A stretch of 64,000 nt of DNA from an uncultured Thermoproteaceae archaeon (GCA_964575955.1 CAZNTG010000006.1:544001-608000); one strand, 5' to 3'; shown: positions 8,131 to 61,946, counted from the stretch's first letter. Numbers and translations are program-made. The notes: a model not told the origin generated them from the sequence alone.

Positions 8131-8646
8131 TTGATATCTATGACTTATGAAGAGTTGAAGTATAGGATATGTAGAGAGTGTGGTGCTAGATGTTGTAAAA
8201 GATTTGATTACAAAAATTGGTTTGTAACACTATCATTGAGAGATATAGTTAGAATATCTGAAGGATTAGGTAAGGATTTAGAATATGTATTAAATAACTA
8301 TATAGAAATAATAAGAATCGGTAGTAGCATAATCTTAACATTGAAAGTTATTAATAGAGTATGCATATTTCTGAGAGAAGATAGATGTACAATTCAGAAG
8401 TTTAAACCAATAGCGTGTAGAGTATATCCAGTATACATACCTGGAATGTACATAGATCCACAATGTCCACTATCGAAATATCCAGAGCTACTCAAAGATG
8501 AAGAAATGTACGTATATCAATACGTTAAAGAACATTTAGAAACTCAGAAAATATTAGAAGAATATTCACCAAAAAGTATTAGAGATATAGCATGGATAAT
8601 TAGAGAAACCCTTAAAGACCTAGATAAAAACATAGAAACTAGCTAG
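8131..8646 (+). CDS. YkgJ/FliB-family cysteine-cluster protein
   Basis: CRECGARCC...CIFL...CTIQ..KPIACRVYP. Confidence 0.85.
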   Translation: MISMTYEELKYRICRECGARCCKRFDYKNWFVTLSLRDIVRISEGLGKDLEYVLNNYIEIIRIGSSIILTLKVINRVCIFLREDRCTIQKFKPIACRVYPVYIPGMYIDPQCPLSKYPELLKDEEMYVYQYVKEHLETQKILEEYSPKSIRDIAWIIRETLKDLDKNIETS

Positions 8647-8735
8647 CCGGGGTGGCCGAGCCAGGCCCAAGGCGCGGGACTGGAGATCCCGTCCCCGTAC
8701 AGGGGGCGTGGGTTCAAATCCCACCCCCGGCGCCA
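8646..8735 (+). tRNA. tRNA-Ser(GGA), CCA encoded
   Basis: GCCGGGG/CCCCGGC acceptor stem, CGGGA-CTGGAGA-TCCCG anticodon arm, long variable arm, GGTTCAAATCC T-arm. Confidence 0.97.
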
Positions 8736-50868: not shown

Positions 50869-51930
50869 ATGAGTGAACTTGAATGGGTTGATAAGTACTT
50901 TCCTAAAGATGATATTGCTAAATGTGTAGGTACTTACATCGCATTACTAGTATTGAGATTTGAGAGAAGAAATAATTATGAAAAGATTATAAATATCGAT
51001 GAACTACTTCAATCAATAAAATTAAACTTAACACTATTACTTGGATCTTCAGCAGCATATAGAGCATATATTTCAGGAAGAGAATTTATAGAAGAACTTT
51101 TTAATAAGATACCTGAAGCTTTACAAGCATCTGTAAGATTTAGAATTTTAGAATATATAGAATCTAGACATTATGCAACCATTAGAAAAAACTACCTATA
51201 CCTTGTTGAAAATGAAATTTCGAAAATATCACCAACATCTAGATATATACTGTATAGAATTTTAAATGATTTAAAATATGGAAAAATACCTGTAATAGAT
51301 AGAACATGTGCAGGATCATGCTATGTGTCTCGATTAGACATATCTTCAAGATATGTGAAGGGAACTGTAGAAAGTTTAAATGAACTTATAGATGATTTCG
51401 CAAAAGTTGGAATAATTAAACCAAACTATCTTAGAATGATAATACCAGCACCATTGCTAGAAGATTACTATATTAGAAAACTTCTAGGTAGTAAGACTAC
51501 GAAAGATTTAATATCTACAATAGATTCAATATTAAAAACATTTGGATACTATCAGGTAGATATTGGAAATATAGACTTAGGTAATAGAGAAGTTTTGAAG
51601 ATTGTATATGAGAAGAAGCTTCAAGATAATACTAAGGTAAAGTTTGAAGTTTACTACTCTAAATATCCAATATCTAGAAGTGATATAGATAAGATATTTC
51701 AAGAATCTAGAGGTAGTGTTATTAGAATATTAATATATGAGTATGATATTGATGAAGAAGTTAAGAAGATTTTGAGAGAAGTTGGTATAATACCTATACA
51801 GTCATCAGGTAGAGAAATTGATAAGTATGTTGTTGAGAGAATTGTAAACTCTATACTTGACATAACATCACTATCATATATAGCACAGTTGAAACATACA
51901 CTACTAGAGATCTTAGAATTATTATACTAG
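50869..51930 (+). CDS. hypothetical protein
   Basis: 353-aa ORF; the C-terminal part loosely resembles an inactive restriction-endonuclease-like fold. Confidence 0.65.
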   Translation: MSELEWVDKYFPKDDIAKCVGTYIALLVLRFERRNNYEKIINIDELLQSIKLNLTLLLGSSAAYRAYISGREFIEELFNKIPEALQASVRFRILEYIESRHYATIRKNYLYLVENEISKISPTSRYILYRILNDLKYGKIPVIDRTCAGSCYVSRLDISSRYVKGTVESLNELIDDFAKVGIIKPNYLRMIIPAPLLEDYYIRKLLGSKTTKDLISTIDSILKTFGYYQVDIGNIDLGNREVLKIVYEKKLQDNTKVKFEVYYSKYPISRSDIDKIFQESRGSVIRILIYEYDIDEEVKKILREVGIIPIQSSGREIDKYVVERIVNSILDITSLSYIAQLKHTLLEILELLY

Positions 51931-51932
51931 CA

Positions 51933-51991
51933 TGGGGGGAGCAAGGGGATGGGCTCTCTCATAGACCCTCACACGAGGGTCTCAGAGCCCC
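51933..51991 (-). ncRNA. Non-canonical (Pyrobaculum-type) H/ACA-like guide RNA A
   Basis: Minus strand GGGCTC-TGA-GACCCTC-gtgt-GAGGGTC-TATGAGA-GAGCCC K-turn hairpin, then single-stranded ATCCCCTTGCTCCCC and terminal CCA. Confidence 0.75.
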
Positions 51992-52029
51992 ATTAACATA
52001 GTGTTTGTAGGTTTAAAAATGTTTAAAGA

Positions 52030-52090
52030 TGTGGGGATTAGATACCCCATAGCCCCTTCATAGACCCATAGACTGGGTCTCTGGGGCTGT
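52030..52090 (-). ncRNA. Non-canonical (Pyrobaculum-type) H/ACA-like guide RNA B
   Basis: Minus strand AGCCCC-AGA-GACCCA-gtcta-TGGGTC-TATGAA-GGGGCT K-turn hairpin, then GGGGTATCTAATCCCC (antisense to the conserved 16S GGATTAGATACCC) and ACA. Confidence 0.8.
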
Positions 52091-52125: not shown

Positions 52126-52398
52126 CTATACCTCACCTTCCTCAGATGGTGCTACCTCTGCAACAGCGTAGTTTCTACCTATCCTCTTAATCTTCACTCT
52201 AACTCTATCTCCAGGTTTTGTATTTGGTACAAATATTATGAAACCACGTATCCTAGCTATACCATCACCTCTACGTGAGAGCTCTACAATCTCCACATCT
52301 ATGACATCTCCAACATTTACAGGACTTCGCCTAAATCCACCTCTATTTCCAGACCTATATCCTGATCCTCTTCTACCACCTTTTGAAGACCTATACAT
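52126..52398 (-). CDS. Single TRAM-domain RNA chaperone with RG-rich N-terminus
   Basis: PVNVGD..DVEI..LSRRGDGIARI.GFIIFVPNTKPGD. Confidence 0.92.
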   Translation of the reverse strand: MYRSSKGGRRGSGYRSGNRGGFRRSPVNVGDVIDVEIVELSRRGDGIARIRGFIIFVPNTKPGDRVRVKIKRIGRNYAVAEVAPSEEGEV

Positions 52399-52542: not shown

Positions 52543-52638
52543 GGGCCCGTAGCTCAGCCTGGTTAGAGCGGCGGGCTTTTAACCCGTGTGGGGGAGGAGA
52601 CCCGTAGGTCCCGGGTTCAAATCCCGGCGGGCCCGCCA
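52543..52638 (+). tRNA. tRNA-Lys(TTT) with an 18-nt intron at 37/38 (52582-52599), CCA encoded
   Basis: GGGCCCG/CGGGCCC acceptor stem; CTTTTA|ACCCGTGTGGGGGAGGAG|ACCCGT forms a BHB motif. Confidence 0.93.
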
Positions 52639-52675: not shown

Positions 52676-54094
52676 TTATAATTTCTTGAGTATTAGTTGT
52701 GTATGTGTTGATTGTACTCCCTTTACTTCTCTTATTGTTTCTACGATGTTGTTTAGTTCTTGTTGATCTTTGACTGATATTTTGACTATGATGTCGTATT
52801 CTCCTGTTACTTCCATAACTTCTACAACTCCAGGTATTGATGCTATTCTTCTAGCTATGGATGTTGTGTATATGTTTGATTCACATTTTACCCATACTAA
52901 TGCTTCTAGATTTTCTGGTGGTTTTAGTAGTACTCTTCTTCCTGTTACTTCTTCAACTAGTTCTAGTAGGTCTTCATCTCTCCACGATCTTGTACTTGAT
53001 TTCTCTTTTATCTTTCTAACAATTATTTCAAGTTCTTGATCTGATACTTCAATTCCAAGTCTTTCAAGTCTTGCTTTTACAGCTTTCTTACCTGTATACT
53101 TGTCTATAACCCAGTCACGTGTTCTTCCTATAAGTTCAGGTGGGTATGGTTCGTATGTTTGTGGATTTGATAATACACCTGCAACATGTACACCTGCCTT
53201 ATGTGTAAATGCGTTATCTCCAACTACAGGTGCGTGTGGTGGTAATACTATTCCTGTGTATTTTTCTACAAGTTTTGAAAGTTCTACAATCTTCTTAAGA
53301 TCTACAGTATCTATATTGTAGTGTACTTTCAATGCTACAGCAACTTCCTGTAGACTAGCAATTCCACATCTCTCACCAATACCATTAACAGTTACGTGAA
53401 TTGCAGATGCACCTCCCTCAAATGCTGCTAGACTATTAGCTACAGCCATTCCAAGGTCATTATGTGCATGTATGTCAAGTTCTATATTTGGAACTTCACT
53501 CTTAATCTTCTTGAAAAGCTCTTTTGCTTTAAATGGTGTTAATATACCTACAGTATCTGCAATGCTTACCCTATCAGCACCAGCATCTCTAGCAGTTTTA
53601 ACAACCTGAATTAGAAAATCTATATCAGTTCTAGAGGCATCTTCAGCAGTAAATCTAACTTTAACACCGTGAGATTTTGCAAATTCTACATGTTCAGCAA
53701 TTATTTGAAGTGCCTCTTCTCTAGTAACCTTATGCTTATACTTTAGATGTATATCACTAACTCCATAGAAAATTGCTATTCTATCAACTTCACACTCAGC
53801 AGCCTTCTCAATATCAGACTTAACAGCACGACAATGACCAATAATCTCAGCTTCAAAACCCTGCTTCGCAATAAGTTTAACAGCTTTCTCAATGTCAGGT
53901 GCGACAGCTGGATGTCCAGCCTCTATCATGTCAATACCAGCCTCATCAAGTTTTCTAGCAATCTCAAGTTTTTGATCAATAGTGAATGCAACACCTGGAG
54001 TCTGCTCACCTTCTCTCAAAGTAGTATCTACTAGGTATACTGGCTTTCTCACACTTGTCCTCTTATGCCTCGCCATGTGTGCATTATGAGACAA
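52676..54094 (-). CDS. Homocitrate synthase (LeuA/HCS family) with C-terminal RAM (Lrp/AsnC ligand-binding) domain
   Basis: DTTLREGEQ, HAHND.G, NGIGERCG, HKAGVH; C-terminal EVTGEYDI RAM domain as in crenarchaeal lysine-pathway HCS. Confidence 0.88.
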   Translation of the reverse strand: MSHNAHMARHKRTSVRKPVYLVDTTLREGEQTPGVAFTIDQKLEIARKLDEAGIDMIEAGHPAVAPDIEKAVKLIAKQGFEAEIIGHCRAVKSDIEKAAECEVDRIAIFYGVSDIHLKYKHKVTREEALQIIAEHVEFAKSHGVKVRFTAEDASRTDIDFLIQVVKTARDAGADRVSIADTVGILTPFKAKELFKKIKSEVPNIELDIHAHNDLGMAVANSLAAFEGGASAIHVTVNGIGERCGIASLQEVAVALKVHYNIDTVDLKKIVELSKLVEKYTGIVLPPHAPVVGDNAFTHKAGVHVAGVLSNPQTYEPYPPELIGRTRDWVIDKYTGKKAVKARLERLGIEVSDQELEIIVRKIKEKSSTRSWRDEDLLELVEEVTGRRVLLKPPENLEALVWVKCESNIYTTSIARRIASIPGVVEVMEVTGEYDIIVKISVKDQQELNNIVETIREVKGVQSTHTQLILKKL

Positions 54095-56737: not shown

Positions 56738-56807
56738 CCCCGTCGGTCTCACGGGCCTGGACAGGGCATGTAGCCCTGAATGAAGGGCTCGCGGTCAGAC
56801 GGGGACA
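56738..56807 (+). ncRNA. Canonical single-hairpin H/ACA sRNA
   Basis: CCCCGTC/GACGGGG lower stem, pocket GGTCTCA / CGGTCA, upper stem with K-turn (TGGA...AATGAAG), terminal ACA about 14 nt from the pocket. Confidence 0.88.
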
Positions 56808-61846: not shown

Positions 61847-61946
61847 TGGCGCCGCCGCCGGGATTTGAACCCGGGACCTACGGGTTTCTGTGCGGGTAGC
61901 CCCCGCTTAACAGCCCGCCGCTCCAACCAGGCTGAGCTACGGCGGC
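61847..61946 (-). tRNA. tRNA-Asn(GTT) with a 22-nt intron at 37/38, CCA encoded
   Basis: Minus strand GCCGCCGTAGCTCAG...CTGTTA|AGCGGGGGCTACCCGCACAGAA|ACCCGT...GGTTCAAATCC; CTGT/ACAG central BHB helix. Confidence 0.95.

Follow-up and report, generated by a model that had tools for sequence, protein, structure and literature searches.

Probable atypical H/ACA guides and the helix 24 loop

Li, Wu and Ye reported in 2024 that four H/ACA RNAs of Sulfolobus islandicus that have neither lower stem nor ACA box are active guides, in vivo as well as in vitro (PMC11077068). By the description given there, sR148, sR563, sR109 and sR136 each consist of a single K-turn hairpin and direct rRNA pseudouridylation with Cbf5, Nop10, Gar1 and L7Ae. 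sR148 has a 3′ guide only, and sR563, a bipartite guide, directs modification of 16S-U747, a position equated with yeast Ψ999. [quoted passage not shown] The sR203–sR210 families of Pyrobaculum, which belongs to the same order-level lineage as the archaeon studied here, are described as K-turn hairpins with a truncated lower stem and a degenerate or absent ANA box, and their GA stem can be read as 10 stacked layers (PMC4652768, PMC11077068). This GA stem extends from the pocket-closing pair to the second G–A pair and is 10 layers long in every H/ACA RNP whose structure is solved; one of the stacked layers may be a bulged nucleotide (PMC4652768). Experimental proof of atypical guides thus comes from S. 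islandicus only, with further examples described in Pyrobaculum.

Eukaryotes also carry an H/ACA-guided pseudouridine in the loop of 18S helix 24, in the E-site region (snR31/Ψ999 in yeast, Ψ1056 in human), and Ψ999 lies 3 nt from an IF3 site (PMC2794176). There the guide has the two hairpins of a snoRNA and its pocket is bipartite, in contrast with the one-sided single hairpins described below.

The locus analysed here comprises 158 bases (51933-52090) of a 64,000-nt stretch of DNA, referred to throughout as the window, from an uncultured hot-vent Thermoproteaceae archaeon (GCA_964575955.1 CAZNTG010000006.1:544001-608000). The host assembly (G000) spans 1.52 Mb in 15 contigs, with 33% G+C and 94.7% completeness. 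Two paralogous K-turn hairpins without a lower stem, each followed by a 3′ tail, had been predicted on the minus strand, and both are present (Table 1). These hairpins, guides A and B, are best read as belonging to an established class, the atypical H/ACA-like guides with neither lower stem nor ACA box. With a probability of roughly three in four, they are independent small-RNA genes for atypical H/ACA-like pseudouridylation guides. Notable features are the great length of the single 3′ guides, the overlap of the two helix 24 targets and, by prediction, a new site at U799.

Table 1. Features of the guide locus, its neighbours and related guides. Positions refer to the window, except for the three guides outside it, which are given by contig of the host assembly.
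Feature	Position	Strand	Remark
Convergent ORF, 353 aa	50869..51930	+	no Pfam family; stop codon TAG 51928-51930
Guide A hairpin	51990-51951	-	basal stem, K-turn, apical stem-loop
A basal stem GGGCUCU/AGAGCCC	51990-51984 with 51957-51951	-	
A 5′ GA	51983-51982	-	
A apical stem-loop	51981-51964	-	
A bulge UAU	51963-51961	-	
A 3′ GA	51960-51959	-	
A 3′ tail AUCCCCUUGCUCCCCCC, then AUG	51950-51934	-	antisense to 16S about 772-788
TATA-like box UUUUUAAA between B and A	52012..52019	-	22-29 nt upstream of hairpin A; putative role
Guide B hairpin	52088-52051	-	basal stem, K-turn, apical stem-loop
B basal stem AGCCCC/GGGGCU	52088-52083 with 52056-52051	-	
B 5′ GA	52081-52080	-	
B apical stem-loop	52079-52063	-	
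B bulge UAU	52062-52060	-	
B 3′ GA	52059-52058	-	
B spacer AU, 2 nt, before tail	52050-52049	-	
B 3′ tail GGGGUAUCUAAUCCCC	52048-52033	-	antisense to 16S 783-798 (E. coli numbering)
ACA after tail B	52032-52030	-	
TATA-like box UAUUAAAAA	52110..52118	-	22-30 nt upstream of hairpin B; putative promoter
TRAM-domain protein gene, 90 aa, RGG-rich N-terminus	52126..52398	-	ORF; Pfam PF01938 TRAM, 56.6 bits
Canonical box H/ACA sRNA	56738-56805 (= G000:C6:600738-600805)	+	single hairpin, fold z = -4.56
Guide g3	C3:134872-134918	-	outside window; 17-18 nt vs 16S
Guide g4	C6:530735-530773	-	outside window; 13-19 nt vs 23S
Guide g10	C14:16184-16227	+	outside window; 14 nt vs 16S

Architecture of the two hairpins

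Both hairpins comprise a G+C-rich basal stem, an internal GA/NNNGA motif, an apical stem-loop of 6–7 bp and a single-stranded 3′ tail, and neither has a 5′ guide. The internal motif has the anatomy of a K-turn, with tandem G–A pairs and a 3-nt bulge on the 3′ strand, giving each RNA a single K-turn hairpin for L7Ae. Hairpin A has one extra 3′-strand nucleotide beside the G–A pairs; in four of the eight A copies a bulge lies one base pair after these pairs, as it does in Pyrobaculum sR204, sR208, sR209 and sR210 as described. Compared with shuffled sequence, the folds give z = −3.85 (A) and −2.83 (B), and model R1 scores the two hairpins at 46.8 and 47.9 bits, respectively.

Absence of a lower stem is apparent from the A/T-rich 5′ flanks and from the tails, which are wholly antisense to rRNA. 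In its minimum-energy fold the window's guide A forms a lower stem AUGGGG/CCCCAU, but this pairing is absent from the orthologues and was rejected. Assignment to the canonical box H/ACA class was likewise rejected, as the end of the tail has no conserved pairing with the 5′ flank, no lower stem of 7–9 bp is found and no ACA or ANA lies at 14–16 nt. The same holds for a C/D box sRNA, because no CUGA follows either tail and the GA motifs form one internal K-turn within a hairpin.

The tails had also been expected to end in ACA or CCA. ACA does follow the window's own tail B, but with the basal stem as drawn it is 19 nt away, outside the canonical 14–16 nt, and in the genus copies 17 nt separate it from the pair that closes the GA stem. 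Furthermore, the triplet varies among B orthologues (ACA four times, GCA twice, ACC and UAA), and the A orthologues share no common box after the tail.

A match to the Pyrobaculum guide families was not borne out by the Rfam covariance models. The best match at the locus, RF02805 (PyrR207), reached 17.3 bits (E = 2.9) where the threshold is 60, which is chance level; at the gathering threshold the window returned tRNAs only, and no relevant match was obtained for 11 guide loci (A, B and nine others).

Complementarity to helix 24 and predicted target sites

The host assembly contains no 16S or 23S rRNA gene, and none of the six same-genus genomes contains a 16S gene. The targets were therefore taken from relatives in other genera, and those within the genus are predicted from them; the comparison set comprised 14 family and order relatives with a 16S. 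Helix 24 reads GGGGGAGCAAAGGGGAUUAGAUACCCC in 14/14 of these relatives' 16S; in one of these genomes, which is 47% complete, additional G's and C's stand at either end. Contigs of both DNA runs, when placed on the 16S of relative L001, proved to be fragmentary pieces from several organisms. Among them, a 153-nt contig of the likely source run (depth 255.6) aligns to L001 2208-2360 with 0 gaps and 7 differing letters and shows no indel in the 790 region; it is not assignable to the host genome.

Tail B is a perfect 16/16 complement of GGGGAUUAGAUACCCC in the 16S rRNA of all 14 relatives, and its target is the entire apical hairpin of helix 24. The original prediction had given GGGGATTAGATACCCC as its exact complement, and this 16-mer is indeed found in every one of the 14 relatives' 16S, although the host's own 16S is not among them. 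The target bases that follow the duplex are U–G (ACCCC-U-G in the relatives). The tail B 16-mer occurs once in the window, compared with 0.01 occurrences expected even when two mismatches are allowed.

Tail A is directed to the adjoining upstream stretch, the 5′ strand of helix 24 as far as the first U of the loop. In the window it complements GGGGGAGCAA plus GGGGAT, while the relatives' 16S reads GGGGGAGCAAAGGGGAT, so that the match is 10 + 6 with one target A left over. The bulged A that had been foreseen in this duplex is expected from the relatives' 16S as well: this has AAA, the window's tail is one U short of it, and one target A would therefore bulge. The genus form of the tail, AUCCCCUUUGCUCCCC, is a 16/16 complement and is carried by 6/6 same-genus orthologues and by a genome from another family of the class (G045). 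As continuous 16-nt complements, the A and B tails exceed the 8–11 bp of sR435 and the 6 bp at one sR148 site given for S. islandicus (PMC11077068).

The distance from the K-turn to the target is conserved. The gap from the 3′ GA to the start of the antisense stretch measures exactly 8 nt in 15 of the 16 copies of A and B; the window's own B, with 9 nt, is the exception. Two G–A pairs plus eight layers correspond to the 10-layer GA stem of H/ACA RNPs, and the eighth nucleotide after the 3′ GA pairs with the 5′ strand and covaries. This spacing rule makes U799 the first target base left unpaired by guide B, and U789 the one left unpaired by the genus form of guide A (E. coli numbering). Sites near U789 and about U799 had been predicted, and for both guides the first unpaired base is indeed a U. 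Guide A would pair with 773–788 by the same rule, and the two target sites overlap by 6 nt. Computed duplex energies at 80 °C are −12.2 kcal/mol for B, −14.3 kcal/mol for the genus form of A and −13.8 kcal/mol for A as it stands in the window, where one A bulges; the self-folded helix 24 gives −6.4 kcal/mol at this temperature.

In seven relatives, the first U of GGAUUAG lies 183 positions from the U before CAACGC (966-equivalent). The S. islandicus positions 747 and 930 are the same distance apart, so that the site already known in helix 24 is probably the first loop U (U788). Yeast Ψ999 and human Ψ1056 are presumably this first loop U as well. By this distance reckoning, the position equivalent to U788 is a pseudouridine in S. 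islandicus, yeast and human, probably one base before the U789 given by the spacing rule for guide A. Guide A therefore shares the helix 24 loop with the bipartite sR563, which targets 16S-U747, but points by the spacing rule to the second loop U and not to the first, the probable S. islandicus site. Guide A would present U789 or, less likely, U788, should its first tail nucleotide be stacked and left unpaired. For the U799 equivalent, no pseudouridine is on record in the literature compared, and the S. islandicus sites described include none that corresponds to it (PMC11077068).

Conservation within and beyond the genus

Orthologues were sought by BLAST and pattern searches of same-genus and related genomes. 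Guide A was found in 6/6 same-genus genomes searched and guide B in 5/6 by exact pattern; the sixth (G005) has a B tail that is short by 2 nt, the missing letters being UA (L046 about 1372-1385). Tail B is unchanged in the other seven of eight B copies. The two guides stand in tandem, B first, in 6/6 genomes read, and the GA...NNNGA motif is unchanged in 12/12 aligned genus copies.

The stems, by comparison, vary in a compensated manner. Among six orthologues, 93.6% of the cells of the B stem pair and four pairs change on both sides, and for the A stem the corresponding values are 90.5% and seven pairs. The covariation score was reached by 0/500 shuffles in either set and slid registers collapse; the statistic rests on six related sequences and is thus supportive, not a formal probability. 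Covarying stems alongside fixed K-turn residues and tails support the view that the structure is under selection. Furthermore, the G–U pairs and the GA/GA motif make sense on the minus strand only.

Beyond the genus, a B-type guide is found in G100, which belongs to another genus of the same family. The 16S of this genome has the matching 16-mer followed by U–G, and G100 alone allows guide and target 16S to be checked within one genome. An A-type guide is probably present in G045. Pattern matches to the A tail in five further genomes (G033, G046, G072, G076 and G007) have no K-turn hairpin and were counted as chance, since a reversed-pattern control also gave 4 matches. Outside the genus, a 13-mer of tail A occurs as a single copy per genome in 28 of 62 order genomes and sits inside the 16S gene in 15/15 checkable genomes. 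No long-tail A or B guide was found in 29 genomes of family f2, including two other genera of the order.

The window itself deviates from the genus consensus at two points: tail A has one U fewer (UU vs UUU, 51941-51942), and guide B has one extra U before the tail (52049-52050), which gives it the spacing GA + 9. These indels could lower or shift the activity of A and B. Their possible causes include tolerance, decay, compensation in the host 16S and assembly error.

Promoters and the adjacent TRAM gene

Archaeal TRAM proteins are cold-shock RNA chaperones, and the original prediction suggested that the guides may be co-expressed with the TRAM gene that lies directly upstream of B in 6/7 genus genomes. 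This suggestion is not supported: each guide has a separate TATA-like box 22–30 nt upstream, and adjacency to TRAM is seen within the genus only. In G005, the exception among the genus genomes, and in G100 and G045, a guide is present without an adjoining TRAM gene. The adjacency is inherited synteny; read-through from TRAM into the guides is possible, and nothing requires it.

The UAUUAAAAA box falls between the TRAM stop codon (52126-52128) and guide B, and A/T boxes lie at equal distance upstream in the orthologues, including 8/8 A loci. With a TATA-like box of its own, each guide probably has its own promoter, a start at or just before the basal stem and no 5′ guide strand. In this respect A and B differ from the Pyrobaculum families, which generally have free single strands at both ends (PMC4652768), whereas A and B would have essentially no 5′ strand by the position of the boxes. 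The U5 run within UUUUUAAA could also end the B transcript. At the other end of the locus, the stop codon of the convergent 353-aa ORF lies 3 nt past the end of tail A, a layout similar to the convergent guide-RNA and ORF ends reported in Pyrobaculum (PMC3388794).

Sister guides and the H/ACA machinery of the genome

A census of exact antisense matches of at least 14 nt between the whole genome and a relative's 16S gave four matches, three of which are tails of K-turn hairpins, including B; tail A was missed because of its one-base gap. Guides g3, g4 and g10 are one-sided, with GA + 8 spacing and a U as the next target base in the relatives' rRNA. The first unpaired base is therefore U in 5/5 guides with rRNA antisense tails of at least 13 nt (A by its genus form, B, g3, g4 and g10). 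For g5 and g6, which are shorter candidates, the reading is ambiguous. The first K-turn descriptor gave 198 matches, nearly all of them A/T-rich noise, and became useful after a GC filter, which dropped the candidate C11:37746-37784. This and four others (C15:23882-23921, C6:5097-5138, C8:49707-49754 and C6:244774-244824) are further one-sided candidates. A 14-nt stretch at G000:C6:421877-421890 (minus strand) is exactly antisense to 153–166 of the relatives' 16S and has no adjoining K-turn hairpin by the descriptor; it may be a chance match or a C/D-box guide.

Orthologues of g10 at G001:C39:1296-1330 and G002:C200:1295-1329 (L075, L074) have hairpins 89–92% identical to A and carry the g10 tail (ACUUGUCCCCCGC-like). 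Such A-like hairpins with a g10 tail identify the guides of the genus as recent paralogues with swapped or evolved tails.

The genome also encodes canonical guides. The RNA at 56738-56805 combines a bipartite pocket with a lower stem of 7 bp (CCCCGUC/GACGGGG), which ACA follows directly; its K-turn shows the GA + 8 spacing, and Rfam did not recognise it. A second canonical H/ACA RNA is found at C14:311-346. Canonical guides share with A and B the K-turn, the 10-layer GA stem, a target U directly below the upper stem and presumably the protein set. In contrast, their bipartite pocket, lower stem of 7–9 bp and ACA 14–16 nt from the upper stem are all absent from A and B.

Profile searches of the genome identified Cbf5 (426 bits), Nop10 (72.8 bits) and two L7Ae-family genes (105.7 and 78.4 bits). 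A Gar1-like ORF scored a weak 22.6 bits, below the Pfam cut-off; the Gar1 model also gave no match in the Sulfolobus control. The Cbf5 gene lies at G000:C6:539211-540170 (plus strand), about 4 kb before the window start, and hence about 56 kb from guides A and B on the same contig, so that there is no close linkage.

Proposed mechanism and alternative explanations

The prediction of one-sided, H/ACA-like guides of helix 24 is supported by structure, spacing, complementarity and protein genes, and pseudouridylation would be the expected outcome. It is proposed that A and B are transcribed and assembled into RNPs, in which L7Ae would bind the K-turn and Cbf5–Nop10–Gar1 would assemble on the 10-layer GA stem beneath it. 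The single-stranded 3′ tail, in place of a 5′ guide and lower stem, would then pair over 16 nt with helix 24 of pre-16S rRNA, and the uridine just 3′ of the duplex, at a fixed distance from the K-turn, would occupy the position of the Cbf5 active site for conversion to pseudouridine. Guide B would open the entire apical hairpin 783–798 and present U799; guide A would pair with 773–788 and present U789. As the two target sites overlap, the guides would have to act one after the other.

A tentative extension, to which we assign clearly less weight than to the guide assignment itself, is that the rRNA substrate completes these guides. The hairpin with its 14–19-nt 3′ tail would leave the missing 5′ strand of the pocket and lower stem to be supplied by the rRNA. 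The guide–target helix would then be comparable in length to a 3′ pocket strand plus lower stem (14–15 nt) and could serve as the platform for the Cbf5 PUA domain. Such guides would unfold helix 24 sequentially and produce a lineage-specific pseudouridine at U799 besides the one in the 790 loop, coupling modification to chaperoning of a helix at the subunit interface in the IF3 and E-site region.

A rather unlikely alternative is that A and B are non-modifying, L7Ae-bound antisense RNAs that act in succession as chaperones of rRNA folding or processing, holding helix 24 open during 30S assembly in analogy with the non-modifying snoRNAs of eukaryotes. For a guide that directs modification, duplexes of 16 nt are long, the whole apical hairpin would be melted by guide B, helix 24 has only about half the stability of the duplexes at 80 °C, the target sites overlap by 6 nt, and the lower stem and ACA box, which make the canonical contacts with the Cbf5 PUA domain (PMC7991803), are missing. 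However, a chaperone role alone hardly explains why GA + 8 is exact in 15/16 copies and why the first unpaired base is U in all five long-tail guides, and S. islandicus provides proven modifiers among RNAs that have neither lower stem nor ACA (PMC11077068). The two roles do not exclude each other.

The window's own indels raise the question of decay in the host, in which the deletion in tail A and the insertion before B would reflect relaxed selection or assembly error, leaving weak or inactive copies of a family that is functional in the genus. Besides the B tail of G005, the window's copies are the sole outliers among seven genus copies per type, and the GA-stem closing pair, U–A or C–G in 5/6 B copies, is a C–A mismatch in the window's B. 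Yet stems, K-turns and TATA-like boxes are intact, and two newly acquired C's in the window's tail A find additional G's to pair with, so that its −13.8 kcal/mol is counted equal to the −14.3 kcal/mol of the genus form. The host's 16S might also compensate, and 99% of the words sampled from the stretch are present in the likely source run, which argues against gross assembly error; decay is accordingly considered very unlikely. It is highly improbable that the locus is a chance resemblance, a plus-strand 16S fragment, a C/D-box methylation guide or a 3′-UTR or terminator element of the TRAM gene. About one exact 16-mer common to a 1.5-Mb genome and a 1.5-kb rRNA would be expected by our estimate in random sequence, but not two adjacent tails on covarying K-turn hairpins kept in seven genomes. 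A UGA...GA motif is also part of C/D boxes, but a D box is lacking after both tails; the 16S-like stretch is just 16 nt long; and a TRAM element is at odds with the guides' own TATA-like boxes and with the TRAM-free guides of G100, G045 and G005.

If A and B are guides, the 16S of the genus is expected to read GGGGAGCAAAGGGGAUUAGAUACCCCUG at 770–800 or to carry changes that compensate for the indels of the window. The locus makes two concrete predictions of pseudouridine sites in helix 24 and its 790 loop, which is central to function, one of them in or beside a site conserved from Sulfolobus to human. Together with at least three sister guides, it extends atypical guides to an uncultured AT-rich genus of the Pyrobaculum order and at least one further genus of its family, and it yields a rule that could serve for searches of other genomes: a K-turn GA, 8 nt, a long antisense tail and a U as next target base. 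The long one-sided duplex suggests how an RNP can dispense with the lower stem and ACA box.

Further features of the window and of related genomes

Several of the relatives' 16S genes are about 2.2 kb long, suggesting introns. The 23S gene of relative L057 (G009:C19:14248-17864) measures 3617 nt against a 2987-position model; it contains a stretch of inserted A/T-rich sequence that is presumably an intron and that gave rise to many chance antisense matches in the census. Three tRNA genes of the window, at 52543-52635 (plus), 61850-61946 (minus) and 8646-8732 (plus), are 87–97 nt long, a length that indicates introns; the first of these lies on the strand opposite to the TRAM gene, 145 nt upstream of it. 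Beyond it, 52676-54094 (minus) holds a homocitrate/isopropylmalate-synthase-like gene (HMGL-like and HCS_D2) with a fused C-terminal ligand-binding domain of the AsnC/Lrp type.
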